Positions 3,169 through 55,782 of a stretch of DNA of 64,000 nt are shown piece by piece; within the stretch, counting starts at the first letter, position 1, and the number at the start of each line of letters is the position of its first letter. The stretch is from a virus: positions 29,509-93,508 of the IMG/VR virus record IMGVR_UViG_3300049460_000123. One strand, given 5' to 3'. The position numbers and the translations under genes are program-made. The notes under the pieces are model-generated. The model did no database searches. It had not been told where the DNA came from and saw only the letters and a program-made list of their open reading frames with translations.

Positions 3169-3786
3169 CTACGAACTTGCAACTACCTGGATTGATTGAC
3201 CGGCGACAGGAATCGCCTCGACGCTCACCTCGAGCACATCACCGTTCACAGTCGCGACCGCCTGCGAGACACTCGCGATGCGCGGATCCGCCAGCACAGC
3301 GCCCTTAGCGGTCGACGCGGCGAGCAGTCGCGATGCCGAGGTGCTAACCCGGCCGATCAGCGTCTTGAGGAGCGATCCATAGCGAGGGTGAAACATGAGA
3401 TCGCCCTGCTGAGTCTCGATGCGATTCTTCAGCGCTTGGCGCAGATTCGCGCGCCCCGTCACTGATGCGAAGTCGCCATTCGAATTCGCGGCGAGCAGTC
3501 CATTGGTGAGCGCGATGTCGGTCCCGAAAACCTGGCTTGGATCCGTCGTCGACGCGACCGCCGTCGGCGCCGGAATGAGGATCTGTGCGCCCGTGAGAAG
3601 CACGCCCGGCCCAGCCTGATTCGGATCATCCGTGAGGTACGGATAAACCAGGTTGTTCGGGTAAATGAGCAGCGTCCACTTCGACGCGTCGCCCATCGCG
3701 CGCGCCGCGACCTTTTGCAGTGTGTCGCCGCGCTGCGTCAGAACGAACGTGAATCCGTTCAGCGGGGTATCGAATGGCGTCGTCAT
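3169..3786 (-). CDS. LysM + gp25/GPW-like baseplate wedge protein
   Basis: N-terminal QRGDTLQKVA..MGDASKW (LysM-like); C-terminal NLRQAL..RIET..G.L.FHPRYGS...DPRI. Confidence 0.8.
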   Translation of the reverse strand: MTTPFDTPLNGFTFVLTQRGDTLQKVAARAMGDASKWTLLIYPNNLVYPYLTDDPNQAGPGVLLTGAQILIPAPTAVASTTDPSQVFGTDIALTNGLLAANSNGDFASVTGRANLRQALKNRIETQQGDLMFHPRYGSLLKTLIGRVSTSASRLLAASTAKGAVLADPRIASVSQAVATVNGDVLEVSVEAIPVAGQSIQVVASS

Positions 3787-4943
3787 ACGTTCACCGTCAT
3801 GCCGTCATTGGCCGCCTTGACCATCGCCGCGAGCTGAGCGGGCGTGTATGGCGCAAGCACAGGATCCATATGCGCCAGTGCCGACAGGGACACCTGCGCG
3901 CCCGCCGTCAGCGCGACCGGACCCGGCGCCGCTGCGCTCATCGGTGCGATCGACTCGAATGCATTCTTGTTCGCGAAGGCAGAGATCGGCGAACCGCCCG
4001 CCGTGCTCGAGCAATTTGAGGAGCCGAACAGCGGCGTATAGTCCTGATACGTGTTCTGTCCAGTCAGCGCGTTTTTCAGCAGACAGCCGATGTTCGTGAA
4101 TGCGCTCGCGATCCCCATGATCTGACCCATGAGTTGGCCCGGCAGGTTCATCACCGCCGCGATCGTCTGGAAGACCTTCGTCGCGCACTGGACGAGCGTC
4201 GTCGCCACACTCATGAGCGCCTTGCCGATGCCAAGCACCGAATTCACCGCGCCCATGACCGCGTTACAGACCTTCGTCACAGCGCCGACGAACGCCTTTA
4301 CCGGCGCGAGAATGTTAGACGTGATCCACGACGAGATGCCGTTCATGAACGTCGTGATCGAGGTGATCGAGTCGATCAGCGATGTCAGGCCGAGCGCGCC
4401 GAGCACTTCGGATGCGATCGACGACGCCGGCGTGCTGTAGGCTCCGAGCTGGTCACTAATGACCGTCATCGGGATTTGATACTGAGCGAGCAGCGGCCGC
4501 GAGCGCGAGCGCCGCAGCACGAATTGCCCCGGAATAACCTGGCTCGTAAACTGGTCGAGCGCGTCGACGTACATGAGCTGGACGAAATCCGGATTGCCGC
4601 CGCTCTGATAGGCCGCCAGGCGCCGCGCGTGCCACTGGTCGAACACCGTCGACTTGAGATCGATAAGGCGCTGGATACCGTCCTTGGCCGACGAGTCGGA
4701 CCGCCATCCGGTATTGCCCGAGATGTTGATCGTCGCTATGCCCGCCCCGAACTCATCGCCCCAGGCGCCCCCGAGTGTTTGCTGAACCGTCGTGCGCGAT
4801 GGATCCGTGCGCGTCATCTCCTCCGGACGCACATACAGCTTCACCTCTGTCGGCGCATCGCTGGCGTTCAGATCGAACAAAAGGAAACTGATCGGCGTGT
4901 CGCCGGCCTTCTGGGACGAGGGAGGAGTAGCGGATAAGCTCAT
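3783..4943 (-). CDS. Baseplate/tail tube initiator-like protein
   Basis: RTTVQQTLGGAWGDEFGAGIATINISG motif; position in baseplate cluster; own late promoter. Confidence 0.6.
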   Translation of the reverse strand: MSLSATPPSSQKAGDTPISFLLFDLNASDAPTEVKLYVRPEEMTRTDPSRTTVQQTLGGAWGDEFGAGIATINISGNTGWRSDSSAKDGIQRLIDLKSTVFDQWHARRLAAYQSGGNPDFVQLMYVDALDQFTSQVIPGQFVLRRSRSRPLLAQYQIPMTVISDQLGAYSTPASSIASEVLGALGLTSLIDSITSITTFMNGISSWITSNILAPVKAFVGAVTKVCNAVMGAVNSVLGIGKALMSVATTLVQCATKVFQTIAAVMNLPGQLMGQIMGIASAFTNIGCLLKNALTGQNTYQDYTPLFGSSNCSSTAGGSPISAFANKNAFESIAPMSAAAPGPVALTAGAQVSLSALAHMDPVLAPYTPAQLAAMVKAANDGMTVNV

Positions 4944-4988: not shown

Positions 4989-5864
4989 TTACGCCTGCGC
5001 GTCCGTTGTCGGAGCGTTGGCACCCTGCGCGGTATGGTGATGCGACTTGACGCCAATGCCGTCGACCGTGACATCGCCGCCGAGCACGTTCACGCTACCC
5101 GTGAGCTGCATCGTCGCGCCGGATCCGCCCGAGCCATTCATACCGCCCTTGAACGTCAGCGCACCGTCGACCGTCATCGCGCCCGTGACGTGCGTCATCG
5201 GCGAATCGATCGTCACGCTAGGCGATTTGATCGTCGCCGCGCCCGTGACCGTCACGTTCGCCGCGCCCGTCGTGTTGACCGAGAGATTGCCGTTATGCGT
5301 GAGCGTCACATTGCCGGACGGATCGATATCGAACGTCGCCACCACCGCGCCGGCGTTCGCAACCTGCAGGTGAGCGTGCACGGCCGCGCCCGTGTTTTTC
5401 TTGATCGCCCACTGCTTATCGAAGTCGCGCCCCGTCAGATCCTCGTGTGCCGGCGAGGTGCCGACGCGGAAATACGTGCCACTCGGATGCGCGAACTCGA
5501 AATTCCCGGCGCCGTCCGTCGTCGTGTAGACATCGCTCGGAGTGCGGTTCACGACGCGATCGAGATCCGCGAAAAGCATCTGGCAGATCTGCGGAAAACG
5601 GAAGCCGATCACGACGCTCGAATTGCCGAACGTGAGCACGGCCGCCGTCACGTCACGGTCCGTTTGCTGCGTCAGATCCCACTTGTTTCCGCTCGCCGGC
5701 AGAGCCGGATTCGGCAATTGCGCCGACCCGGTATTCGTGCTCGCGTGCGGCGTAAGCACCTGCACACCGACCATCTGCTCACCGTTGTCGACCATTACGA
5801 GATCGACGCTATAGTCTTCCGGATGGACTGCCGCCACCCGCCCCCAACGGATGCTGTTACCCAT
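4989..5864 (-). CDS. Baseplate central spike (gpV-like)
   Basis: OB-fold-like N-terminus (GRVAAVHPEDYSVD), beta-helix repeats, C-terminal HxH apex motif (KSHHHTAQG). Start trimmed to MGNSIRW. Confidence 0.85.
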   Translation of the reverse strand: MGNSIRWGRVAAVHPEDYSVDLVMVDNGEQMVGVQVLTPHASTNTGSAQLPNPALPASGNKWDLTQQTDRDVTAAVLTFGNSSVVIGFRFPQICQMLFADLDRVVNRTPSDVYTTTDGAGNFEFAHPSGTYFRVGTSPAHEDLTGRDFDKQWAIKKNTGAAVHAHLQVANAGAVVATFDIDPSGNVTLTHNGNLSVNTTGAANVTVTGAATIKSPSVTIDSPMTHVTGAMTVDGALTFKGGMNGSGGSGATMQLTGSVNVLGGDVTVDGIGVKSHHHTAQGANAPTTDAQA

Positions 5865-28700: not shown

Positions 28701-30733
28701 TCGACGCCGTGCTCCGTCTTCGTATCGCCGTCTTTCGGCCCTTGCTCGACCGGCGCGGCCACAGCCTCCGCCGGTTTCGTTACCACCAGCAAGCGCGCGT
28801 TGGCGCCGGTTTGTGACGGCAGATCCGAACCCTTGAACGTGTTTTCCGGCAGCTTCTCGACGTCGGCGCCGTGCTCATCGAGCCACGAACGGAACGCCGT
28901 CGCGCGCTGATCGGATCCGAAGAAAACACCCTCGCCGGCGATCGCGACCAGCTTGCCGCCCGGCTTGAGCATGTCGTATGCGCGCATGATATGCGCCGCG
29001 TCCTTGCGATCGGAGAACGGCGGATTCATGATCACCGCGTCGTACTGCTTGCCCGGCTCGAACGTGTCGAAGTCGTGCGCCGCGATGTTGTGCCCCTTCG
29101 CGCTCAGCACATTGCGCAGCGTGTCGGATATCTCGATCGCGTCGACCGTTGCGCCCGCATCGCGCGCCGCGTCCGCGAGGTGCCCATTGCCGGCTGACGG
29201 CTCGAGCACAGACATACCCGGCTTGACGCCCGCCATCTCCGCCATCTTGGCCGCGAGCGGCTTCGGAGTCGGGAAGAAATCGATGCCGACCTTTTTGCCG
29301 ACCAGCGCGCGTTCAGCCGCCTTGATCGGATCCTCTTTTTTCACGCCGTCACGGAACACCAGGTATTCGGCGAGCGCGAGGCGCAACTCGTGATCATTCG
29401 TGATACCGATGCGCGCCAGGCGGTCGACCTTCTTGATCTGCTCGTCATTCCACCAGCCGAGACCCGATCGAATGTCTTTCTCATCAAGGTATTTTTTAAG
29501 ATCTTTGACCATCGCGCCATCCGGGCCGCTCGACGCGCGCAGGCGTTCGATCAGCGGCTTGGCCCCGCGCTTGCCCTGCAGCTTCTCGATCAGACGCGGC
29601 TTGTCGGCGCCACCAGTGCCCCACGACGGCCGGTAGATTTTCGCGTTGCGGATATCGTCCGGCGTCGGCGCGCGGCCCTTGGCTCGTTGCTGATCGACAT
29701 AGGACAGGTCACGATCCGTCGCATACATTGCATTGCGCACGGACTCATCAAGCGATTCGACAGCCGCGCGCGTGCTGATGCCCTTCAGATGCTTCGCCTC
29801 GCCCGCCTCGATCGCGTCCGCAAGATTGATCATCGTGCCGGCGATCGCGAGCCGCTTGCTTGCATCCGCCTCCGCCCCGGCCGCCATGCGTGCACGGCGC
29901 GCGGTATTGGCGAGGCGATCGCGGCCGAGATTCTCGTTAGCCTGATCTGCCAACTTCGCACCAGCCGCGCGCAGCTTGGCCGCCTGCTCTTTCGACTTGT
30001 CGACGACGGGCGCCGGCGCCACTTCATCAGTCTTCTCAGCCGGCTTGGTGAACATGACGCGCGGAGCGGCCGCCGGCGTGGCGCCGTCGAGATGCTTCTC
30101 GCGAATGAACCAGCCGCCGTCCTTTTTGAACGTGTACGCGTCGATCGCCTTCGCCTGGTCGTGCGTCAGATCCGTGCGCACGACGCCGCGCAGGACTTTG
30201 CCCTTGCCGGTCGTGTGCTCGACGATATCGTGCGCGGACGGAGCCGGCTTTTCCTCCGCCACCTGCGTCTCCGCCTCGACCGGCTCTTTCTCTGCCGGCG
30301 CGGCCGCTTCCTTCGCAGCTTCGATTACCGGCTCCGCTTCTTTCGCCGGCATGGGTTCCGGTTCTGGCGTGCGCAGATCGCCGACATGCATGCCCAGCCG
30401 CTCGACGACGGACGCCGCTGTAATGTCATCGATATGCGCCATCGCGTCGATCAGCTTCGCGCGCTGCTCCGGCCGCATCTCCATCAGCGTCGAGCGCATG
30501 CGTGCCGGGCCGCCGTGCTTGGCGAGGAACTTGTCCAGCTTGGGAGACTGCTTAGCGGCCTTTGGCGCTTCAGGAGCGGGGCCGAACAAGTGCCCCTGCT
30601 CGTGAGGCTTCATCGCAACGTGCGCAGTGCGCATGTGCGGTTTGACGTACGTGCCGTCCTTCCGGTACGAGCCGGCGACGTGCACCGGCATACCGAACAG
30701 CGGGAGCTGCGACTTGCGAAGAATGAAGATCAT
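25751..30733 (-). CDS. Polyvalent protein: N6-adenine MTase + HExxH zincin-like + LPD1 domain
   Basis: DFFPTP, VLEPSAGNG and MNPPF MTase motifs; AHEWFHALD; C-terminal YW...EMAARAFQSWV...NDYL...PYPEGDER..INAAF. Confidence 0.85.
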   Translation of the reverse strand: MIFILRKSQLPLFGMPVHVAGSYRKDGTYVKPHMRTAHVAMKPHEQGHLFGPAPEAPKAAKQSPKLDKFLAKHGGPARMRSTLMEMRPEQRAKLIDAMAHIDDITAASVVERLGMHVGDLRTPEPEPMPAKEAEPVIEAAKEAAAPAEKEPVEAETQVAEEKPAPSAHDIVEHTTGKGKVLRGVVRTDLTHDQAKAIDAYTFKKDGGWFIREKHLDGATPAAAPRVMFTKPAEKTDEVAPAPVVDKSKEQAAKLRAAGAKLADQANENLGRDRLANTARRARMAAGAEADASKRLAIAGTMINLADAIEAGEAKHLKGISTRAAVESLDESVRNAMYATDRDLSYVDQQRAKGRAPTPDDIRNAKIYRPSWGTGGADKPRLIEKLQGKRGAKPLIERLRASSGPDGAMVKDLKKYLDEKDIRSGLGWWNDEQIKKVDRLARIGITNDHELRLALAEYLVFRDGVKKEDPIKAAERALVGKKVGIDFFPTPKPLAAKMAEMAGVKPGMSVLEPSAGNGHLADAARDAGATVDAIEISDTLRNVLSAKGHNIAAHDFDTFEPGKQYDAVIMNPPFSDRKDAAHIMRAYDMLKPGGKLVAIAGEGVFFGSDQRATAFRSWLDEHGADVEKLPENTFKGSDLPSQTGANARLLVVTKPAEAVAAPVEQGPKDGDTKTEHGVEYVLRDGRWHRANEEDDNSRNAFTVQRVIDDKLSPVKFERGESVKVAGTFPMRAGKIDGISHDKREAKVDGVWYDFGYIYKQAYDEYAAPRADIEKGIATLEERLDAGNGIDASRLLEDIEKQVNHFKLMQYASAVDRLRQKIVEVDRQFQDRLTADRMRKQAQAADDARRAADEAAKAPKKVIRMTMDEWKKVHRDYKGNYPDGRVVMHGGQMVPVEIVKDPAKSSHGNPVDVAPAPAAEATQANPDVELAEDREDLADELARDPHSEKAKDLVSKIAERVAAREEPVEVDRPSSENYRYADTGHIGGSRKERAALEVITRAKKEGARVFATAIDWDALEQNPREAKSLITKSNLFGTVDWDALRAGGMEPGAGFLVDRIYAAIGQEPSADNPSARQDYAIGLQSLRDRLEGCKTPAEVTGVLDNLREEFEGAILTAEESEQYQVHGNASLALANESREIDAGNTALYNEMQKTRVELYRAREAVENRKRRGWAPKPELDEKLADLEKVDAAATKLWGDTLQGNKPRRDEIDDARSELGRKREVLKLMAKVRNQTENPLHRAWNLMGDRFVGVIKYRSYKGSDAFANHVAAAKVGKIGWDWMEKEQKRAPRISKESARFQLKVADSFERVGGRSVVPDSTMALKDMFGLRDVQSGNWVLRDVASAKFHTEHTAGAFADLADLMGADDAHVSLNGRLAMAFGARGNGAAGGGAAKAHYEPIQRVINLTKMGGGGSLAHEWFHALDNMAKEAEGMGAAGQDDFITENPHLLPPGELRDATIALRSAMLDGTHQHTELISYTASDVKMAQRNLNGTYPNAVARSIRDAGTVHDAFKAIDAVYPDDKTLTKKRKSTREIWRLIAAAHFGGNPEGGAVEVKQGKGMSSFAFEASKLDTGSKEYWQLTHEMAARAFQSWVEDRLSDKGRRNDYLSSLADNRFHVDPLTGVQWKPYPEGDERVKINAAFDRFVAAVKKADTLAKALELV

Positions 30734-37001: not shown

Positions 37002-37610
37002 ATGTCAGCTCCCGAAAACACTCACCTTAGCCAGTCGGCGATCGTCGGCTCGCTGTCCAATCAGATCGTCGCGCTGCAGGACGAAAACAAACGCCTGCGC
37101 GCGGCACTCGCCGATTGCGGTACCGCCGTTGGTGGAATTGTCGCGCCGCAGTGCTCACTCGACTTCCTCGAGTGCGTCTCGCAGGAGGTGCGGCTCGTCA
37201 CCGAGCGCCTGCGCCGTGAGCGCGCCGATGCACTGCTTGCCACCGAACGTGCTCGCGAGGAACGCAACCGCGTTGGCCTCGACGTCCGCCGCGAGTGGGT
37301 TGGCAAGTGCATTGAAGCGATCAGGGAGCGCGACCACTGGAAATCGAACCACGACTCCCAGGTGTCGCGCGCCCGGCTCCTGATCGAGCGCGGCGACATC
37401 CCGATCGAGCGCGTGCGCGCATACGAGGAGATGGGGGCACTTCGCACGAATGCTCAGCGATTCGAATGGGCAAGCGCAAGTATAGAAAACGCCGATTCGT
37501 TTATGAACTTGATGATGCAACACGAACTGTGCAGCCGCGACGGCCTGCTGGCGGACATCGACGCCGCCCGCACGCCCAAAGAAAGCGACAATAACGCGTT
37601 GCGCGCTTAA
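37002..37610 (+). CDS. Hypothetical coiled-coil protein
   Basis: 202 aa; RDHWKSNHD..V..AR.L.ER.D.P.ER motif. Confidence 0.65.
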   Translation: MSAPENTHLSQSAIVGSLSNQIVALQDENKRLRAALADCGTAVGGIVAPQCSLDFLECVSQEVRLVTERLRRERADALLATERAREERNRVGLDVRREWVGKCIEAIRERDHWKSNHDSQVSRARLLIERGDIPIERVRAYEEMGALRTNAQRFEWASASIENADSFMNLMMQHELCSRDGLLADIDAARTPKESDNNALRA

Positions 37611-37680
37611 TCATTTTTGAGTAATATGCTCGAACAGGTTGGGCGCGCGGTGCGCCCGCTGCGACACGAGGGACCAGCAA

Positions 37681-41453: not shown

Positions 41454-41491
41454 TGCTCAAATTTGAGTTGTTTTTTAATCATTTTTGAGTA
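41454..41491. promoter_or_regulatory. Tandem early operators
   Basis: TGCTCA-aatt-TGAGTT and TAATCA-tttt-TGAGTA, starts 22 bp apart. Confidence 0.7.
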
Positions 41492-41527
41492 ATACTGCGT
41501 GCGCGTAACTTAACCCGAGAGAGAACC

Positions 41528-46471: not shown

Positions 46472-46489
46472 CCGTCCAAACACACGCAT

Positions 46490-46520
46490 GTACATCGGTA
46501 CATAGGCACATAGGTACATA
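46490..46520. repeat. 8-bp GTACATAG-like tandem repeats (centromere-like, cluster 1)
   Basis: gtacatcg gtacatag gcacatag gtacata. Confidence 0.55.
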
Positions 46521-47257
46521 TGAACGAACATCCAATTCTTTTCAATCGCGAGATGATCCTCGCGCTGCACGCCGGCCGCAAGACGCAGACGCGCCGAATC
46601 GTGAATCCGGCCCCGATCGCCGATGATCGTTTTATTGGAGGCTACAAGATCGCCATGCCGAAAAGTCGGTACACGGGTATGCAGACGGGAGGCGAGATAT
46701 CTGTAGAAGCGGCATATGTCCACACATGCTGTCCGTACGGCTCTCCCGGCGATCGTCTATGGGTACGCGAAGCCTGGCGCGTCAGTCACAAGCACGACTA
46801 CCTTGCGCCGCGCGACCTGCCGTTCGAGCGCGGAATGACGATCATGTATGGCGCCGGCGGATCCCGTGCTCACAACGCCGCCGGCGAGTATGTCAACGAT
46901 CCGTGCTATCCGCTCACGCTACCCGCTTGGGCCGGGAAAGGCCGCCCGTCGATCCACATGCCGCGCGCCGCGTCGCGCACCACGCTCGAAATTACCGGAG
47001 TGCGCGTCGAACGACTGCAGGATATCAGCGAGGCGGACGCAGAGAAGGAAGGCGTGAATCGACTCGCGAACGGCTCGCCCTACTGGCGTAACTACGTAAC
47101 AAGCCGGCCCGACCACGGCACGTATGACTACACCTGCCTTAGCGCGCGCGAGTCGTTCTCGACGCTTTGGGATAGCATCAACGAGGCGCGTGGGTTCGGC
47201 TGGGAAACGAACCCCTGGCTTTGGGTGGTCGACTTCAGCTCGTACCGAGGTACATAG
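46520..47257 (+). CDS. ASCH/PUA-like phage protein
   Basis: PILFN..MI.AL..GRKTQTRR...GDRLWVRE...PSIHMPR.ASR..LEIT.VRVERLQDIS. Confidence 0.8.
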   Translation: MNEHPILFNREMILALHAGRKTQTRRIVNPAPIADDRFIGGYKIAMPKSRYTGMQTGGEISVEAAYVHTCCPYGSPGDRLWVREAWRVSHKHDYLAPRDLPFERGMTIMYGAGGSRAHNAAGEYVNDPCYPLTLPAWAGKGRPSIHMPRAASRTTLEITGVRVERLQDISEADAEKEGVNRLANGSPYWRNYVTSRPDHGTYDYTCLSARESFSTLWDSINEARGFGWETNPWLWVVDFSSYRGT

Positions 47258-47410
47258 GTACACAGGTACATAGGCACGCTCGTACATACCTGCACACACA
47301 CGTCCGTACCTGCACACACACGTGCATCCATAGGTGCGGACGTTTCTACGTGCGCGCGCACACACCTGCACACCCACAAACCGATGTATGATCCGACGCA
47401 CCTACATACG
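47242..47410. repeat. Centromere-like (parS/parH) repeats upstream of parA
   Basis: GTACATAG/GTACACAG tandems and ACCTGCACAC repeats, as expected for a type Ib partition site. Confidence 0.6.
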
Positions 47411-47419
47411 GAGGTGTCA

Positions 47420-48136
47420 ATGTCACGGATCATAACAATCGGCATGAAGAAAGGCGGACCCGGCAAGACGACGATCGCGACGAACATCGCGGCAATGTGC
47501 GTCACCGCCGGCATGAGGACGTTGCTGGTCGACACGGACGGGCAGCGCACGGCGGCGAGCTGGGCCGGATCCCGGCGAGAGCAGGGCGTCGAGCCGCCGA
47601 TTACCTGCGTCGAAAAGACGGGTAAATGCGGCCGCGATATCGCCGAGCTCGCCGACAATTACGACGTCGTCATCGTCGACGCCGGCGGCCACGACAGCAT
47701 AGAGCTCCGCCAGGCGTTCGCCGTCGCGGACCTATGCATCATGCCGCTTCGGCCATGCCAGCCGGACGTCTGGACTCTGCCGGACATGATCGAGCTGATC
47801 AACGAGATCGAGGAAAAATCCGGCACGCGCCCGCGCGCATCCGTGCTGATCAATGGCAAGGAAGCGCCGCGCAAGGTGAGGGGAGGGTACCGCGAGACCC
47901 AGGACACGCGCGACACCGTCGACTCGATCCGCGAGACATTCGGCGACGCCGTTCCCGTCCTTGGATCGATGGTTTCCTATCGCCCGGCATTCTGGCGCGC
48001 GTTCCCCGCCGGAATGAGCGTCGTCGAGTTGCCCGATTCGGCCCGCGCCGAGAGCGCCAAGGAAGAACTGATGAACCTTTTCAAGGAGATTTTCGATGTC
48101 GAATACTCGACCGTCGATCAGCGTCGCGCAGCCTAA
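47420..48136 (+). CDS. parA: ParA partition ATPase (type Ib)
   Basis: Deviant Walker A KGGPGKTT, LVDTDGQ, YDVVIVDAGG; GGAGG SD before ATG 47420. Confidence 0.92.
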   Translation: MSRIITIGMKKGGPGKTTIATNIAAMCVTAGMRTLLVDTDGQRTAASWAGSRREQGVEPPITCVEKTGKCGRDIAELADNYDVVIVDAGGHDSIELRQAFAVADLCIMPLRPCQPDVWTLPDMIELINEIEEKSGTRPRASVLINGKEAPRKVRGGYRETQDTRDTVDSIRETFGDAVPVLGSMVSYRPAFWRAFPAGMSVVELPDSARAESAKEELMNLFKEIFDVEYSTVDQRRAA

Positions 48137-48490: not shown

Positions 48491-48819
48491 AATTGGGAGG
48501 ATTCCCGGGTTGATCTGCGCGAGGGTTTTCCACAAGACTCTCGCGCGTAGTTTGTAGACGTTTGTTAACCGTTTGTATACGTCTCAGACCCTTACCAGGC
48601 GTGGCTTTGCGGGACGCTATTGGGAGGAAAGCCGGGTCAATTGGGAGGCGGACCGGGCCAATTGGGAGGGCGGCCGGGTTCCAATTGGGAGAAAAGCCGG
48701 TTCATCTCGTGTTGTCCACAGCTCGCACCCGGAAATCCTCCCAGTGACACCGATCGACAGGGGATGATAAATTGTTCCCTCCCAGTCGGCCCGCGTTTAA
48801 CCCGGAAATCCTCCCATAT
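48491..48819. repeat. Plasmid origin: iterons, DnaA-like boxes, AT-rich repeats
   Basis: Direct iterons WATTGGGAGR-N4/5-CCGG at 48491, 48618, 48639, 48660, 48683; inverted copies at 48727 and 48799; TTTTCCACA 48526, TTGTCCACA 48712; GTTTGT x3. Confidence 0.88.
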
Positions 48820-49558
48820 GAAACTCAAATATGCGCAGACAGGCTTGAACCTGGTCGACCGGCACGTGACGATGCACAACGACTTGCTTGTGGCGTCGCA
48901 CGGACTGAAGACGCTCGCCGAGCAACGCATCGTGAAGTCGTGCGCAGCAAAGATCGATTCGGTGCGCCTAGACGGCAACCGGTACCGCGTCCGACTGACT
49001 GCACAGGAATACGCCGAGACTTTCAACCTCGACACGACGACGGCATACGAGCAACTGAAGTCCGGTTGCGAGTCGTTGGCCGAGCGCTGGATTGTCTGGT
49101 CCGAGCCAGTGCAGCGCGGCGCCGTAGCCGTCCACCGCGACCGCTGGGTGAGCGGCGCAACGTATGTCGACAAAGCCGGCTGGATCGAGCTCAGATTCTC
49201 GCCGGAGGCGACACCGTATCTCATGGTCCTGCGCGGCAACCACACGACCTACCTGCTACGCCAGGCGGCCGAGCTGCGATCGATCTACTCATGGCGGATG
49301 CTCGAGCTCCTGATGCAGTTCAAAGACACTGGATGGCGCCAGATGCAGATCAAGGACTTCCTGCATGCGATGGACGCGAAACCGAGCCACCTGCAGAACT
49401 TCAAAGACGCCCGCCGGCAGATTATCGAAGTTGCCGTGAAGGAATTGCAGGACAAAGACGGATGGATCATCACGTGGACGCCGATCAAGACCGGCCGGAA
49501 GGTTACTGATATCCGGTTTGAATTCAGCCGGAACCCGCAAGGCACGCTCGCGCTATGA
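48818..49558 (+). CDS. repA: Plasmid replication initiator (Rep_3 family)
   Basis: N.L..ASH.L.TLAEQRI...AY..LK...LRSIYSWRMLELLMQFK..G..AV.EL...K.GRKV..I.F. Confidence 0.9.
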   Translation: MKLKYAQTGLNLVDRHVTMHNDLLVASHGLKTLAEQRIVKSCAAKIDSVRLDGNRYRVRLTAQEYAETFNLDTTTAYEQLKSGCESLAERWIVWSEPVQRGAVAVHRDRWVSGATYVDKAGWIELRFSPEATPYLMVLRGNHTTYLLRQAAELRSIYSWRMLELLMQFKDTGWRQMQIKDFLHAMDAKPSHLQNFKDARRQIIEVAVKELQDKDGWIITWTPIKTGRKVTDIRFEFSRNPQGTLAL

Positions 49559-49708: not shown

Positions 49709-49995
49709 TGAAAGCCATCCTCATCGACAAGTCACGCAGCGCAATCGACGCAGTGTCGTTCGCGAACACTGTGATCTGGCAGGTGCCAGAGCCCGTGCTG
49801 GGCAGCGCACACCACTTCAAATATAGCCTTTCGTACATCGTTCGCGGCGACTGCGTTCTGCGATACGACAACGAGCGCGGCAAAGGTGATCATCGGCACT
49901 GGCTCGACGAGGAAACCGCCTACAACTTCGCTTCGCTTGAGCAACTGCTCCGCGACTTTTATTCGGATATCAGTACCTGGAGGGCATCAAAATGA
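49708..49995 (+). CDS. DUF6516-family putative toxin
   Basis: IWQVPEPV.GS.H.FKYSL...LRYDNERGKGDHRH. Confidence 0.85.
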   Translation: MKAILIDKSRSAIDAVSFANTVIWQVPEPVLGSAHHFKYSLSYIVRGDCVLRYDNERGKGDHRHWLDEETAYNFASLEQLLRDFYSDISTWRASK

Positions 49996-50348
49996 ACAAG
50001 GTGACAATCAGCGTTGAGTCACGCGATGCAGCGATCGCGCGCATCGTGGCCGCCGCCAACAGCGGCAAGGAGGCGCAGACCGCACACATCACGTTTGACA
50101 CGCCGGAGGCACTGTTTGGCACGTTCACGCAGATGCGCATTCAGATCGTCCGCGAGATGACAGGCAGCGGCCCGATGTCGATCCGCGAGTTGGCCCGGCG
50201 AGTCGGGCGCGATGTGAAGCGTGTGCACGAGGACGTACACGCCCTTTTGAATGTCGGCGTGCTCGATCGCACGGAAAGCGGCGCGATCGAATTCCCGTAT
50301 GACGCGGTGCACTTCGATTTTTCCTTTGACGGCCAAAAGGCAGCGTGA
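49992..50348 (+). CDS. HTH antitoxin/regulator (HVO_A0114-like)
   Basis: SIRELARRVGRDVKRVHEDV..L...G...FPYD. Confidence 0.85.
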   Translation: MNKVTISVESRDAAIARIVAAANSGKEAQTAHITFDTPEALFGTFTQMRIQIVREMTGSGPMSIRELARRVGRDVKRVHEDVHALLNVGVLDRTESGAIEFPYDAVHFDFSFDGQKAA

Positions 50349-50532: not shown

Positions 50533-50627
50533 AACAGATCATAGATCTGTCGCGTCTATCGCCAAAAGCAAAGCCCGGCAAGCGTCTCCGCTGTCGGGCT
50601 TTTTTCATGGGCGCGCATAGGGCGCAA
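50533..50627 (+). repeat. Bipartite module-boundary element, copy 4 (spacer contains a terminator)
   Basis: AACAGAT-catag-ATCTGTC; GGGCGC-gcata-GGGCGCAA at offset 76. Confidence 0.8.
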
Positions 50628-50787
50628 ATCTCAACGTGGGCGAATGTCGATCATTTCATGGTGTCCTCCGGACTGGTTGTAGTTCGGACGAGTTGGCGCT
50701 CGACCGTGTAGGTGGCTTATCCGCCGACTTACTTTGCTTCTCAAGAACCCTCATGATCCCGTCACGACCATCCGCCGTCGATGGACG

Positions 50788-50838
50788 TAATTATTTTTGA
50801 TCAATGCGTTGATCTTTTTTGATCAAGTGCGGTATGAT
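50788..50838 (+). promoter_or_regulatory. Promoter of the ncRNA locus with two operators
   Basis: TTGATC-18-TATGAT; operators at 50788 and 50810. Confidence 0.7.
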
Positions 50839-50844
50839 TCGTTC

Positions 50845-51350
50845 ATCGGTTCAGCGCTCTTTCTGGCTGAAGCGATCGAGGGGAGCGACTTCGAAATACG
50901 CCCAACGAATTGCAGCAGAGACGAGCCGGTGCGATGACGACTGCATCCTCAATTGGCGAGACAAAAGTACGTCCGAATGCCACATCGTTAAAGTGCCCCC
51001 GCCAGGGTGACGGCGTGTTATGTGTCAAATGCGCAGAGATGCGCCGATTCGCCGCCGTAAGCGGCCAGATTTATTGCTGGTGATGCGACCGCTGTCGACG
51101 CGGCCCGAAAGGGATAGTCGGATGAGGATTAGCAGGAGTGCCTCATGTTAGAAAACCACTGCAGCACAGTACGGCTTTAGATTCCGGCCGGGACTGTTCG
51201 TGAAGTGGATGAGACTGGTGCAGATGGGGTCGCGAGCCGAAAGGCCCACGCTTTGACGCCCGAAGGTGCGAGCATTCACAGATCGTTAGCCGATTGACTG
51301 GCGTAAGCAGTCGTTTTCAAAGCGCGTTCCTCGAGCGTTCTTCGAAAACC
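50845..51350 (+). ncRNA. Putative large structured ncRNA
   Basis: No credible ORF; many short stems capped by GAGA/GAAA/GTAA loops. Confidence 0.6.
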
Positions 51351-51356
51351 CCGCGC

Positions 51357-51575
51357 TACGGCGCACCAAACCGGCCACAAGATAGGGTGGACGCTGGAAC
51401 TCGTAACCAGCACCGTCATAACGGAGCCTGTGCCAATGTCGTGCGCACGAATATTTTGGCGTCGATTCGGGTTCCGTTGTGAGGGTTAAAGCGCGGGCTG
51501 GGATATACCGGCCGCCCTCGAAGTGGAAAGCCCCGGTACACAAGCCGGCGAGCTGGTGCAGAGCCAGCACCTTCA
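51357..51575 (+). ncRNA. Two degenerate tRNA-like units
   Basis: Both end in GCTGG-loop-CCAGC-ACC[GT]TCA, a T-arm-like stem plus acceptor strand. Confidence 0.45.
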
Positions 51576-51650
51576 AGTGTGTCGACTCGGAGAACCGTCA
51601 CGTAGCGCTGCGCGCGCCTGCGAGACATACGTCAGTCTGAGTCGACACGC

Positions 51651-51782
51651 TTGAAGGTGACGAAATTGGTAGACGTAGGTGGTTAGGGCAATGCGACGCA
51701 TTGGGCAAACGAGGCGCCAGAGCTCGGAGCCATAAAACCTAAAGCCGCCGGCCATTGCGGGTTCGAGTCCCGCCCTTCTCCG
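51651..51782 (+). ncRNA. tRNA-Leu-like element with a 62-nt anticodon loop
   Basis: D arm GACGAAATTGGTAGACGT; T arm GCGGG-TTCGAGT-CCCGC; GGTGG/CCGCC stem; only 5-bp acceptor stem. Confidence 0.65.
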
Positions 51783-51816
51783 AAAGGTCTCTCGCATACT
51801 CCCCGTATTGCGATTC

Positions 51817-51844
51817 AGGGCGCCCTAACCGGCGCCCTTTTTTT
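51817..51844 (+). terminator. Intrinsic terminator of the RNA locus
   Basis: AGGGCGCC-ctaacc-GGCGCCCT-TTTTTT. Confidence 0.85.
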
Positions 51845-51846
51845 CG

Positions 51847-52185
51847 TCAAGCGATCACGCCGGCGGCGATAGCCGACCACAGTACTTTGCACGCGAAGTG
51901 GATCGCCTGATCCGTCCGCAGACCGATCCGATTGTCACACTTGAGAAAGTCCGTCACCGCATGGACGATCGCCTCCGCCACGCCGAGCACGATCGAGCCC
52001 GTGAACAGCGCGACGAACCCGGCATGCACCATCGAATGCGCGAACAGCGCGTGAGGCCAAAAGATCTTTCCGAGTGGCGTGTTTCGGTTCTTACCATTGG
52101 CGAGAAAATCGCCCTGAAGCGGGTAGTCGGCGAGCGAATGGCCGACAACGAGCCAGAACAGGATCGTGAGGAACGCGACGGTCAT
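51847..52185 (-). CDS. DUF3307 membrane protein
   Basis: GHSLADYPLQ...HS.VH...HAVTD..K...DQAIH. Confidence 0.85.
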   Translation of the reverse strand: MTVAFLTILFWLVVGHSLADYPLQGDFLANGKNRNTPLGKIFWPHALFAHSMVHAGFVALFTGSIVLGVAEAIVHAVTDFLKCDNRIGLRTDQAIHFACKVLWSAIAAGVIA

Positions 52186-52382
52186 AGCGCGATCGCCTCG
52201 CGGATCCGCGTGCACACAGTCGCCGGACCATCCAGGATGATGTCGTGCACATCCTCGCGCGTGGCAGAGTCGAGCTCGTTGAATGCTAAAGCCTCCTCAT
52301 CGCCGAGGACAAGCGGGCCATTGGTGCGGAGCACCAGGAAGGAATTGACCGCGCCCTCGAGCGCGTATCGGTGAAAACGCAT
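52182..52382 (-). CDS. Hypothetical protein
   Basis: GGAG SD; late promoter variant at 52417. Confidence 0.55.
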   Translation of the reverse strand: MRFHRYALEGAVNSFLVLRTNGPLVLGDEEALAFNELDSATREDVHDIILDGPATVCTRIREAIAL

Positions 52383-53272: not shown

Positions 53273-55387
53273 TTAGTTGTAGTAAAGCGGAACGAGCGCC
53301 ACCGCATCCGCGACGACATACCCAGTCGTCCCCGTGTTGCCCACAACCACCTTATTGTTCGCCGGATCGTTCGCCGTGAATGCATAGGTTCCGATCAGCT
53401 TCCATGCGCCGGAGTTGATCTGGTTGACGTTCACCGCCGCCTGCGCGACGCCGGCCGCCGTCACCGTATGCGGAACTGCACCCGAGCGCGTCGAGCTCTC
53501 CGGAAAGAACGCATAGGCGCCATACGTGCCGGCCTTGGCGAGCGCGAAACGAAACTCTACCGAGCACGTCCCTTTGTTCGTCGCATTGTCCGACAGGTAA
53601 GTCGGCCCGTAGATCGACGACTCTGCAAACGTGCTGAGTGTCTGCACCTCTTGCCATGCGCCCGCGACGACTATCTGTCCATTGCCGGCGGCATCGACAT
53701 ACGTGCCTACAACGTTGCCGCCCGGCGGAATGTCGAGCACGGCCGCGCCAGGCGGGAAATAACCCATGCTTTCCCGGATCTTGTACGGATCGACCGCCTG
53801 CACCGTCGACGCGAGATCGATCGCGCGGGCAGCGGCGAAGCCTGCAATCTCGCCGAGCTGCATGGCGATCGGCTCGACGCGGATCGATGCGAACGCGGCA
53901 TGCGACGCCGACACCGCGAAAGTGACGAGCAGGTTCGTGCACTCAGTCACTTTCGGGCACAGCGCCCTATAGCTGATCCAGTACCGACCATCCTGGCCGC
54001 CGCTCGCTGTCTTCTGGAAGAACCCGCCCTCGAGCGCGATGAATCCGTTGTAGACGACCGTTTGGCAATGGTGCGAGTCCATCGCATAGAAGCCGATCGC
54101 GACGCCGTCCGTTACCGGATCGATGCGCTGGCAATGACGATCGGTCATGACAAAATCGCCGATCATGCGGCGTCCCTCTCGCACGTAGAGCTGCTTGGGC
54201 AGTCCGTGCCGAGTCTGCATCTGCAGATATGGCGGAAGGCCGAACCCGGCAAGCGTCGTCTTGATCGCGGCCGGCACGCGCGAGTCTTCGCGCAGGAACT
54301 TGAACAGGCCCAGCGTCCAGTCGACGTGCTGCTGATAAATCGCCTCGCGTTCAGCATACGTCGCAGTCGGCCATGCGTCGGCGCCGCCGATAAAGTCGAG
54401 CTGCTGCAGCGCTGAGCCCGCATTCAGATCGGTCACGCCGTCTTTGCACAGGTGATCGTTAAACAGGCCCGGCGGATTGGAGTTGTCACTCCATGCCGTG
54501 ATCTGACCCGCCGCGAACTGACGACCCAGGATCTCGTAATTGAGCGCGCTATAGTGCGTCGGCTCCGGGAATCGGCGGAAGGTGCCCGGGCCGCCGCTCG
54601 TCGAAACCACGTTGACGCGGAACCCGTACGCCTGGACGCGATCGTCGCCGGTTCCGACGGCCGCGACCGTTGCATTCACACCCGGCAGCAGGCCGGACGA
54701 CGGAACGGCCGCCGTGATATACGGATCCACCTGCCACGCGCCGGCCTTGTTGTAGGGAGTGACGACGCCGTTATAGGTCTCGTTGTACTGACTGTTCGGC
54801 TCGCGTCCGACCGCGAACGAGCAGCCGGCGGCCGCCATAAGATCGCCCTCATAGCTTGCATCGATGTACACCTTCGCCGTCACCGTCAATTGCGGCGCGA
54901 CCAGCGGCGTCAATGAATCCTCGAACGTCACCGCGCTAATCTCCGCGCCGGATTTCTTCACGGCAGACGGGATAACGCGGTAGTTATTGCGGACCGTGAT
55001 CCGGTTCGTCGACAGCAGTGCCGTGAGCTGGGCAACCATCGCTTTAGGCGACGCGTTCAGACTTTGCCCCCAAAACGTCGGGTAGTCCGTCACGCTGGCG
55101 GAATAGTTCGAGCTCCATATCGCCCGGTAGAGCGCATTGGCGAGCCCCTTCACGACGTTGCAGTCGCCGCCAGCTCGATCGGTGTAACTCAGGCCGCCTT
55201 GTGCCGGCATGCCGCCGAAAATCGTATCCGGATTGATCAGCTCGACCGTCTTTCCGTTCTGCGCGGCCGATATCGCCGCCAGTATCCCGCTGCACGTCGC
55301 GCCATAGACGCAGACGTCAACATTGCTCGTCGCATAGAGCGAATCGGCCTGGTGCCGAGCCAATCCCGGCGCGTCAAGAATTCCCAT
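53273..55387 (-). CDS. FAD-dependent oxidoreductase with C-terminal golvesin/xanthan-lyase-CBM-like domain
   Basis: DVCVYGATCSG..AA..AA..G, YIDASYEGDLMAAAG...GRE, YVREGRRMIG, MDSH, SASHAAFASIRVEP; C-terminal W..IGTY.F...VVADAV. Start trimmed to MGILDAPG. Confidence 0.85.
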   Translation of the reverse strand: MGILDAPGLARHQADSLYATSNVDVCVYGATCSGILAAISAAQNGKTVELINPDTIFGGMPAQGGLSYTDRAGGDCNVVKGLANALYRAIWSSNYSASVTDYPTFWGQSLNASPKAMVAQLTALLSTNRITVRNNYRVIPSAVKKSGAEISAVTFEDSLTPLVAPQLTVTAKVYIDASYEGDLMAAAGCSFAVGREPNSQYNETYNGVVTPYNKAGAWQVDPYITAAVPSSGLLPGVNATVAAVGTGDDRVQAYGFRVNVVSTSGGPGTFRRFPEPTHYSALNYEILGRQFAAGQITAWSDNSNPPGLFNDHLCKDGVTDLNAGSALQQLDFIGGADAWPTATYAEREAIYQQHVDWTLGLFKFLREDSRVPAAIKTTLAGFGLPPYLQMQTRHGLPKQLYVREGRRMIGDFVMTDRHCQRIDPVTDGVAIGFYAMDSHHCQTVVYNGFIALEGGFFQKTASGGQDGRYWISYRALCPKVTECTNLLVTFAVSASHAAFASIRVEPIAMQLGEIAGFAAARAIDLASTVQAVDPYKIRESMGYFPPGAAVLDIPPGGNVVGTYVDAAGNGQIVVAGAWQEVQTLSTFAESSIYGPTYLSDNATNKGTCSVEFRFALAKAGTYGAYAFFPESSTRSGAVPHTVTAAGVAQAAVNVNQINSGAWKLIGTYAFTANDPANNKVVVGNTGTTGYVVADAVALVPLYYN

Positions 55388-55395
55388 TTTGTTCC

Positions 55396-55782
55396 TTATA
55401 CGATGGTGATAGCGGGCTGCGCAGTCACCGCGCCGTTGACGTCGCGCGTAACCGCGAGTTGCGTGAGAGTTTTTGCGGGCGGCCCGGCATACGTCGCATG
55501 CCATGCGTTGATCGCACCGCTCGCAGGGTCTTGCGCATCCGTGACGTAGGTGCCGGGCGTCCCATCCGGCCAAACGATGCTTGCGGACAAAAGCACGCCG
55601 TTCGCGTCGCGCGTGCCCGAAACGAGTTGCCCGAAGTTGCCGGCGTACGCCCAGCCGAGAAGCGCCTGAACGATGTTCCCGACCGGCGAGAATTTGCGGA
55701 TCTCATCGAGCGCTTCGTTAGCCCTTGCGGCCGCCGCGAACGCTTGAGCTAACGAGCTCTGACTGATATCAAGTGTGGTCAT
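55396..55782 (-). CDS. Putative virion adaptor protein
   Basis: TRDANG....A.IVWPDG.PG.Y...TQ.AVTRD.NGAV motif; late promoter. Confidence 0.6.
   Translation of the reverse strand: MTTLDISQSSLAQAFAAAARANEALDEIRKFSPVGNIVQALLGWAYAGNFGQLVSGTRDANGVLLSASIVWPDGTPGTYVTDAQDPASGAINAWHATYAGPPAKTLTQLAVTRDVNGAVTAQPAITIV

Follow-up and report, generated by a model that had tools for sequence, protein, structure and literature searches.

What is encoded in a gene-free stretch of a phage genome in which the strands of several RNA stems appear to be shared between rival folds? The window analysed here is 64,000 nucleotides (nt) long and covers positions 29,509 to 93,508 of the IMG/VR virus record IMGVR_UViG_3300049460_000123, a complete phage genome of 93,508 base pairs (bp) with direct terminal repeats, for which the public runs are rhizosphere metagenomes. 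A sequence-only reading of window positions 51313-51782 described three tandem tRNA-mimic units, interlocked by long hairpins with alternative pairing. This stretch is probably the 3' half of a non-coding transcription unit. We think it probable, though well short of certain, that positions 50840-51845 (+ strand) make up one non-coding unit of about 1 kb, consisting of a string of separately conserved RNA modules carried on a polycistronic precursor that would be cut by host nucleases. The modules are, in order, an unnamed 5' module, a Proteo-phage-1 RNA, a motif here called U1, a helix P1 together with a second motif U2, and an element derived from tRNA-Leu. Units 1, 2 and 3 of the sequence-only reading correspond to U1, U2 and the tRNA-Leu-derived element. 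All coordinates are collected in Table 1.

Long hairpins and stem-loops

The three stem-loops and both long hairpins are present in the sequence where they had been placed. The hairpin of 24 bp (linker hairpin 2) is confirmed in full, 92% of its pairs being Watson-Crick and the remainder G-T. Folded alone it has a predicted energy of -58.1 kcal/mol, and 24 pairs were reached in none of 300 dinucleotide shuffles, for which the maximum was 17. The 13-bp run described for the other hairpin (51416-51428/51470-51482) is also there, but its length alone is within chance, being matched in 98 of 300 shuffles. It is the core of a longer helix, linker hairpin 1, and it is significant because it is conserved in relatives, not because of the length of the run.

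The sharing of strands is equally clear. Positions 51652-51659 form the 3' arm of the 24-bp hairpin and also the 5' acceptor strand of unit 3 in the cloverleaf drawn by ARAGORN, while positions 51480-51485 form the end of the first long hairpin and also the 5' strand of P1, where they pair with 51515-51520. A 771-nt stretch folds on the + strand with -329.5 kcal/mol (z -4.67) and more weakly on the - strand, with -303.2 kcal/mol (z -3.74).

It may be added that CGGAGAA at the top of the 24-bp hairpin (51588-51594) could pair without mismatch with TTCTCCG, which lies just beyond the unit 3 T-arm (51776-51782), so that a pseudoknot or a third alternative pairing is possible.

Motifs U1 and U2

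The hairpins of units 1 and 2 had been described as T-arm-like. They are instead the second hairpins (hairpin b) of two distinct conserved motifs, U1 and U2. The T-loop consensus is found in the third stem-loop only (51757-51773), which is also the sole part that Rfam ties to tRNA-type models (tmRNA positions 347-363, 14.5 bits). The description as a tRNA mimic therefore holds for unit 3, which is tRNA-derived, and not for units 1 and 2, whose loops are conserved as AACYCGTAA and KGCRGAG, respectively, and are not T-loops.

In the window the hairpin b loop of U1 is AACTCGTAA. Across seven loci (alignment A2) hairpin b of U1 is 100% paired, and its stem occurs as GCTGG, GCCGG, GCACG and GCCAG, each with its own complement. 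The covariation score over these loci is 0.476, compared with 0.128 in shuffles, and was reached in 0 of 500 shuffles. A loose pattern search for U1 returned mostly unpaired, apparently chance matches, and recovered none of the known U1 loci.

U2 is defined by GG-N-A-R, a hairpin a with the loop ACRCAA closed by a U-G pair, a 3-nt spacer, and a 5-bp hairpin b with the loop KGCRGRG. It occurs as a single copy per locus, and the window copy scores 74 bits on model R1 (E 3e-16, the E-values of the model being rough). The RNA family was collected using patterns derived from the window. In the resulting alignment of 27 U2 sequences (A3), 98.1% of cells are paired, eight of the ten pairs show changes on both sides, and both helices covary; none of 500 shuffles equalled this. 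The loops of U2, by comparison with its stems, are nearly invariant.

A 20-nt word from unit 2 is found at 18 IMG/VR loci. In bacterial genomes the same 20-mer gives 26 matches, seven of them with the full motif: five carry the labels Burkholderia, Paraburkholderia, Pigmentiphaga, Caballeronia and Robbsia, and the other two are short contigs identical to one IMG/VR locus. Most matches outside the Burkholderiales have no hairpin b and look like chance occurrences in G+C-rich coding DNA. A looser pattern with free stems added members having altered stems. U2 thus defined spans podoviruses, myoviruses and one P1-like phage of Burkholderiales, and stands both before anti-defence and replication genes and inside RNA arrays.

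The near-invariance of the loops suggests that U2 is recognised by a conserved host or phage factor. Taken together with the breadth of contexts, it makes U2 a good candidate for an RNA element that phages in general use to act on host machinery. Neither U1 nor U2 matches any family in Rfam, and no description of either motif was found in literature searches. A self-cleaving fold of the hepatitis delta virus type was considered for U2 and rejected, the 8-nt hairpin a loop appearing too small for it; no Rfam ribozyme family matches U2 either.

The connector between modules

Each motif is followed by a tail (CACCTTCA-like); this tail and the next head (TGAGGGTG-like) together form a linker hairpin. 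As defined here, the connector consists of a tail CACCYTCA after the motif, a head YGANGGTG, and, 9 nt ahead of U2, an internal CCNTC strand. Two linkers and one P1 are present in the window, and the same features are also found in Burkholderia phage CSP3 and in the loci L084, L115, L135, L137 and L117 (L numbers denote the loci compared; L001 is Bordetella phage PHB04).

In P1 the head pairs inside its own module. A helix search places the 3' strand of P1 9 nt before the GCCCC of U2 in L002, L001, L115, L123, L135 and L137, and inspection by eye shows the same register in the window, L084 and L129. Covariation is seen at the middle pair (G-C, A-T, T-A and T-G), the variants of the helix being GAGGG/CCCTC, GAAGG/CCTTC (L137), GATGG/CCATC (L129) and TGATGGCG/CGCCGTCA (PHB04). 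The enclosed insert differs among loci, the extremes being a 29-nt loop in the window and, in L135 and L137, a tRNA-like body with a D-arm and a canonical T-loop; the body in L135 scores 19.8 bits on tRNA-Sec.

There are 13 linkers in seven loci, with tails that follow U1, U2 or a recurrent CGTAAGCGG hairpin. The inner arms of these linkers are all different, and they contain 207 Watson-Crick pairs, 25 G-U pairs and 6 A-C mismatches. The excess of G-U over A-C favours an RNA transcribed as the + strand.

A head thus pairs either with a tail or with an internal strand, and these two conserved partners therefore constitute the competition that had been noticed in the window. Since the relatives share the same grammar, the competing pairings and the interlocking of the hairpins are real, and the design is conserved in at least seven related loci.

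As a separate observation, the heads GAGGGTGA and GAAGGTGA (51480-51487 and 51652-51659) resemble a Shine-Dalgarno sequence, and the tail CACCTTCA (51568-51575) resembles the anti-Shine-Dalgarno end of 16S rRNA.

Limits of the unit and its relatives

No credible open reading frame (ORF) is found within approximately 50610-51846, the gap of about 1.2 kb between the gene for a small helix-turn-helix (HTH) protein and the DUF3307 gene. The longest + strand ORF in the gap is disrupted in strain variants by a 1-nt deletion at 51349, and across 51313-51782 the strain variants differ at just two places. The proposed unit runs from a sigma-70-like promoter, overlapped by two copies of an operator-like repeat, to an intrinsic terminator. 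Proteo-phage-1, which is the sole Rfam family found in the window, lies within the unit and upstream of the region first described. ARAGORN in its default mode finds no tRNA or tmRNA in the window or in the whole genome.

By blastn, pieces of the non-coding gap are found in Bordetella phage PHB04 and Burkholderia phage CSP3. The modules recur in differing orders in these two phages, in two IMG/VR contigs, and in contigs labelled Burkholderia, Paraburkholderia, Caballeronia, Robbsia and Pigmentiphaga. This kit of parts is found in both phages and prophages of bacteria of the Burkholderia type, in many cases next to true tRNA genes. The closest relative at the locus is L123, a Paraburkholderia contig of 95 kb. 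The 5' module also occurs on other metagenome contigs, at greater depth, and its homologue in PHB04 begins immediately after a tRNA-Pro.

PHB04 (NC_047861) has in positions 3540-4854 a tRNA-Met, a tRNA-Asn, a tRNA-Pro and a permuted two-piece tmRNA with the tag ANDDYIRAAA, as identified by ARAGORN and Rfam. These RNA genes fall in the homologous gap, which is 2.7 kb long, follows RtcB, and has no RNA annotation in the deposited record. In L115, L135 and L117 the array leads on into genuine tRNA genes. The idea of a tandem array of structured RNA modules is thereby supported, with one module derived from a tRNA and with related arrays lying among real tRNA and tmRNA genes.

Two smaller observations concern these arrays. 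A GCCGCCGTAAGCGGC-type hairpin recurs in the window (51051-51065), in L001 (3897-3913), in L084 (about 5230-5250) and in L123; it precedes the tRNA-Pro in PHB04 and a tail in L084, and probably represents an additional small module. In L135, a weak match to the poplar-1 RNA motif (21.6 bits against a gathering score of 110.5) lies at 1248-1346, on the downstream side of the Caballeronia array, and is probably not significant.

Table 1. Features of the non-coding unit and its surroundings, in window coordinates.
Feature	Position	Strand	Description
Dispersed operator-like repeat D2	37607-37626, 41475-41494, 50787-50806, 50809-50828		TTAATCATTTTTGAGTAATA type; last two copies overlap the promoter of the unit
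ParA	47384-48136		
Rep3 initiator	48620-49558		
Small HTH protein	49992-50348		
Sigma-70-like promoter	50809-50838	+	TTGATC, 18 nt, TATGAT; from promoter scan; probable start of the non-coding unit
Conserved 5' module	50907-50998	+	blastn 76% to L001 (PHB04) 4001-4091, 82% to L137
Proteo-phage-1 RNA motif (Rfam RF03044)	51089-51166	+	53.8 bits against a gathering score of 42; model positions 1-82, full length
Motif U1 (unit 1)	51345-51411	+	GCGC-tetraloop hairpin 51353-51364, AAACCGGC, hairpin a 51376-51389, hairpin b 51393-51411
Stem-loop of unit 1	51393-51411	+	GCTGG, 9-nt loop, CCAGC, then ACCGTCA
Linker hairpin 1	51412-51486	+	51412-51434/51464-51486, 20 of 23 positions paired, 29-nt loop, minimum free energy -38.7 kcal/mol
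Helix P1	51480-51520	+	head TGAGGG 51480-51485 with CCCTCG 51515-51520; encloses 29-nt insert
Motif U2 core (unit 2)	51518-51572	+	GGAAAG, hairpin a CCGGT/GCCGG with loop ACACAA, hairpin b GCTGG-TGCAGAG-CCAGC
Stem-loop of unit 2	51552-51568	+	GCTGG, loop TGCAGAG, CCAGC, then ACCTTCA
Linker hairpin 2	51568-51659	+	24-bp stem 51568-51591/51636-51659, 44-nt structured loop
Unit 3	51651-51781	+	tRNA-Leu-derived; acceptor 51654-51658/51774-51778; D-arm 51660-51676; T-arm 51757-51773
Anticodon-arm substitute of unit 3	51678-51687/51738-51749	+	10-bp arm with 55-nt insert
Stem-loop of unit 3	51757-51773	+	GCGGG, loop TTCGAGT, CCCGC, then CCTTCTCC
Intrinsic terminator	51817-51845	+	8-bp G+C-rich stem, then T run; closes the unit
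DUF3307 gene	51847-52215	-	convergent, directly after terminator; large terminase further on

The phage carries the plasmid-type genes ParA and Rep3. Just upstream of these lies an ORF (46520-47257) assigned to PHROG 874 (function unknown), flanked by two clusters, at 46474-46536 and 47234-47296, each of five 8-nt iteron-like repeats (GTACATAG type). The clusters are possibly a plasmid-type origin or partition site. An unusual piece of phage cargo is a 766-residue protein encoded on the - strand at 53273-55573, with FAD-dependent oxidoreductase and Golvesin C-terminal domains. Among 80 loci gathered by means of the neighbouring DUF3307 gene, none has a homologue of the RNA region, and a search for relatives of an HVO_A0114-like neighbour gene found none.

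The tRNA-Leu-derived element

Unit 3 is the module to which the idea of a tRNA mimic applies. Its 19-nt D-arm word TGACGAAATTGGTAGACGT is typical of phage tRNA-Leu genes in IMG/VR, and its body has a D-arm of the Leu type and a shortened variable arm. It is the only unit in which a D-arm and a T-arm (T-loop TTCGAGT) are able to form an elbow as in tRNA. Contigs from four other rhizosphere runs are informative here. The more abundant of them join position 51675 to position 51756, and have 31-37 nt in place of the 80 nt of the window, which read as normal Leu(GAG) anticodon and variable arms. These contigs show that unit 3 has the D-arm and T-arm of a true tRNA-Leu.

As a working tRNA, unit 3 fails at several points. 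ARAGORN calls it only when introns are allowed, as 'tRNA-Pro(agg)' with a 55-nt insert at 51690-51744. A 7-nt anticodon loop on a 5-bp stem is obtained only after removal of this insert, and the anticodon is then AGG. The Rfam tRNA model (RF00005) does not match the window, even with E relaxed to 10. The acceptor stem has 5 bp (GAAGG/CCTTC) compared with the 7 bp of a tRNA, its first two positions being mismatched; after the 3' strand comes CGAAA, and there is no CCA. Folded alone, unit 3 forms a cloverleaf in which the acceptor has 5 bp and the insert sits on a 10-bp arm; when the upstream sequence is included in the fold, its 5' strand is taken by the 24-bp hairpin.

L108, a phage contig of about 91 kb, contains an element of similar kind, also aberrant and tRNA-Leu-like and also flanked on its 3' side by TTCTCCGAAA. 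In that element GGAGAG is a real 5' acceptor strand. Directly in front of it, at L108 1683-1712, there is an acceptor/T-arm 'minihelix' with seven of eight acceptor pairs and the T-loop TTCGATC, and with no D-arm or anticodon arm.

Two other origins for unit 3 were considered and rejected. It does not look like an attachment remnant or attP core: its 3' strand differs from the real tRNA-Leu 3' end in those rhizosphere samples and has no direct repeat in the genome, and no integrase gene was found nearby. The word GGGTTCGAGTCCCGCCCTTCTC occurs nowhere else in IMG/VR, which also counts against attP. Nor does it look like an archaeal-type intron-containing tRNA, given the absence of a bulge-helix-bulge at the junctions (judged by eye) and of RtcB in the phage, and the anticodon AGG.

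The proposal that all three units are tandem tRNA mimics or circularly permuted tRNA-like domains, processed by RNase P into decoys or regulators like P1 C4 and P4 CI, has to be judged in this light. The cloverleaf that unit 3 forms alone, and its acceptance by ARAGORN with introns, speak for it. So does the topology of a hairpin followed by a strand that pairs downstream, which is that of a permuted acceptor/T minihelix, and the presence in PHB04 of a permuted tmRNA in the homologous region. The non-T-loop consensus of the other two units, however, is not what tRNA mimics or permuted tRNAs should have. Searches at E up to 10 gave no match to the Rfam tRNA or permuted-tmRNA models, and a match of 15.3 bits, the size of a T-arm, to YrlA (gathering score 69). 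There is no CCA anywhere, the phage has neither Ro60 nor RtcB, and U2 occurs alone before ORFs without any acceptor-like partner. As an account of the whole array the proposal is accordingly improbable.

A proposed model for maturation of the array

In the reading that we favour, of a precursor made of separately conserved modules, transcription of the whole unit would give an RNA that host nucleases cut at the linkers and at the tRNA-like elements. We infer this cutting from the architecture and from three known precedents, namely tRNA-punctuated processing, the RNase III sites between the early genes of phage T7, and the precursors of permuted tmRNA. During transcription the linker hairpins would be expected to form first, because both of their arms are made ahead of the rival strand. 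Alternatively, a head could pair within its own module, with the CCNTC strand, and so form P1 or an acceptor stem of the tRNA type. RNase III would be the likely enzyme for stems of 20-24 bp, and RNase P and a 3' tRNA-processing enzyme would be likely to act at the tRNA-like elements. Cutting would then free the heads to close their own modules, so releasing several small stable RNAs.

Certain observations weigh against this reading. In other phages U2 directly precedes ORFs of varied kinds, which would fit a role as a 5' leader equally well. The perfect 24-bp helix offers RNase P no obvious discontinuity at which to cut. L123, the nearest relative, has neither linker 2 nor unit 3, and a 101-residue ORF stands in their place; linker 2 and unit 3 are therefore dispensable or recently acquired. 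Finally, a diverged copy of unit 3, known from one contig at depth 3, has lost parts of the insert hairpin through deletions with no apparent compensation.

A bolder version of the model can be offered only tentatively. The head/tail connector may be a programmed folding relay that orders the maturation of several RNAs, with U2 as a new class of small RNA element binding a conserved host factor. Each head would be locked with the preceding tail, and would close its own module after nuclease cutting or strand exchange. U2 would need a defined 5' end, supplied either by a promoter or by tRNA-type 3' processing. It is of interest that in three A+T-rich loci a -10-like hexamer, read by eye, lies 3-5 nt before the GG that opens U2, and that in L090 and L117 U2 follows a tRNA-type CCA end after a few bases.

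Alternative explanations

The region might be a decaying tRNA gene cluster, a set of leftovers and recombination scars with no present function. Intact tRNAs are found in the homologous region of relatives and none in the present phage, and unit 3, with its failings as a tRNA, its absence from L123 and its non-compensatory deletions in one diverged copy, looks like such a leftover. Decay would not, on the other hand, leave U1 and U2 with strong compensatory variation and near-invariant loops across distant phages. It would not keep the linkers paired through 13 different sequences, P1 covarying, and the strain variants so nearly identical. Even in unit 3, the substitute for the anticodon arm is a well-formed 10-bp helix. 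Cluster decay explains unit 3 tolerably, and does not explain U1, U2, P1 or the linkers; we regard it as an unlikely account of the locus.

Also unlikely, and perhaps slightly more so, is the idea that U2, and perhaps U1, is a cis-acting leader that stabilises the transcript or binds RNA polymerase or ribosomes, the window copy being a leader that has lost its ORF. In other phages, genes for SSB, Mom, Acb2/Tad1 and DUF1643 begin within about 90 nt downstream of U2, and in L123 it lies 22 nt ahead of the 101-residue ORF; the -10-like hexamers mentioned above would also suit a leader. In the window, PHB04, L084 and L135, by contrast, no ORF follows, and U2 continues instead into another linker and RNA module. 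The genes downstream of U2 share no function, and for this reason U2 is no riboswitch of the ordinary, metabolite-binding kind.

A role at the DNA level, either as inverted-repeat elements resembling miniature transposons or as recombination or replication sites that shuffle cassettes, is very improbable: although the conserved linker ends look like terminal inverted repeats, the modules are shuffled between phages (a cassette of linker 2 and unit 3 replacing an ORF) and the region adjoins the Rep3 and ParA genes, such a role is disfavoured because the ratio of G-U to A-C, 25 to 6, is strand-specific and because the heads also pair, with covariation, with the internal strand in P1, which would be needless for a DNA repeat, and in addition the elements always have one orientation inside a promoter-terminator unit and the arrays of other phages do not lie beside replication genes.

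Comparison with known systems

The reading of the locus as a processed array of RNA modules can be set beside several known RNAs. The antisense RNA C4 of phage P1, from the immI operon, is thought to be matured by RNase P. The present phage resembles P1 in its lifestyle, and has a repressor-type operator at the promoter. The comparison made in the sequence-only reading does not extend further: no icd- or ant-type genes or target repeats lie downstream, where there is instead a terminator and a convergent gene, and no match to the C4-type families of Rfam was found in the window.

YrlA (RF02553) has a non-decoding tRNA-like domain with a T-arm and a D-arm inside a longer structured RNA (PMC4201824). 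The window match to it is only the size of a T-arm, far below the gathering score, and no Ro-binding stem was identified. A Ro60/Y RNA system was therefore considered and rejected, the YrlA match being weak, the complete genome having no match to PF05731 (Ro60/TROVE), and RtcB being absent.

GOLLD and ROOL are long, highly structured phage non-coding RNAs that are often found beside tRNA genes. Neither has an Rfam match in the window. The modules described here recur separately and in different orders, which speaks for an array rather than one fold.

In the permuted tmRNA (RF04321, RF01850) the T-arm and the 3' acceptor strand come first, followed by a hairpin and then by the 5' acceptor strand, so that in the precursor the acceptor stem takes the form of a long hairpin. 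Neither model has a match in the window, whereas PHB04, used as a positive control, gives 104.5 bits. The window has neither a tag reading frame nor a CCA, and a T-loop is missing from the hairpins that precede its linkers.

In the TMERs of murine gammaherpesvirus 68, a viral tRNA-like element that does not decode stands directly before one or two hairpins, from which it is separated by tRNA 3' processing. TMERs belong to a eukaryotic virus, are transcribed by RNA polymerase III and yield microRNAs, so that the analogy is one of architecture only. The architecture is similar to that of L135, L137 and L090/L117, in which a tRNA-like body is followed, a few bases on, by the two hairpins of U2.

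A parallel among phages is found in the species 1 and species 2 RNAs of T4. These are stable structured RNAs of unknown function that are co-transcribed with tRNAs and released by the host tRNA-processing enzymes. The present phage differs in having no true tRNA, and the head/tail connector is not a known feature of T4. Like the T4 RNAs, however, the family described here is found in or beside clusters of tRNA and tmRNA genes. Phage tRNA clusters have long been known to hold extra stable RNAs, and the present family is sizeable and testable: it adds two covarying motifs absent from Rfam, non-decoding tRNA-like scaffolds, and a connector with mutually exclusive precursor helices, and the motifs are carried by two cultured phages, CSP3 of Burkholderia contaminans and PHB04 of Bordetella bronchiseptica, which makes them accessible at the bench.

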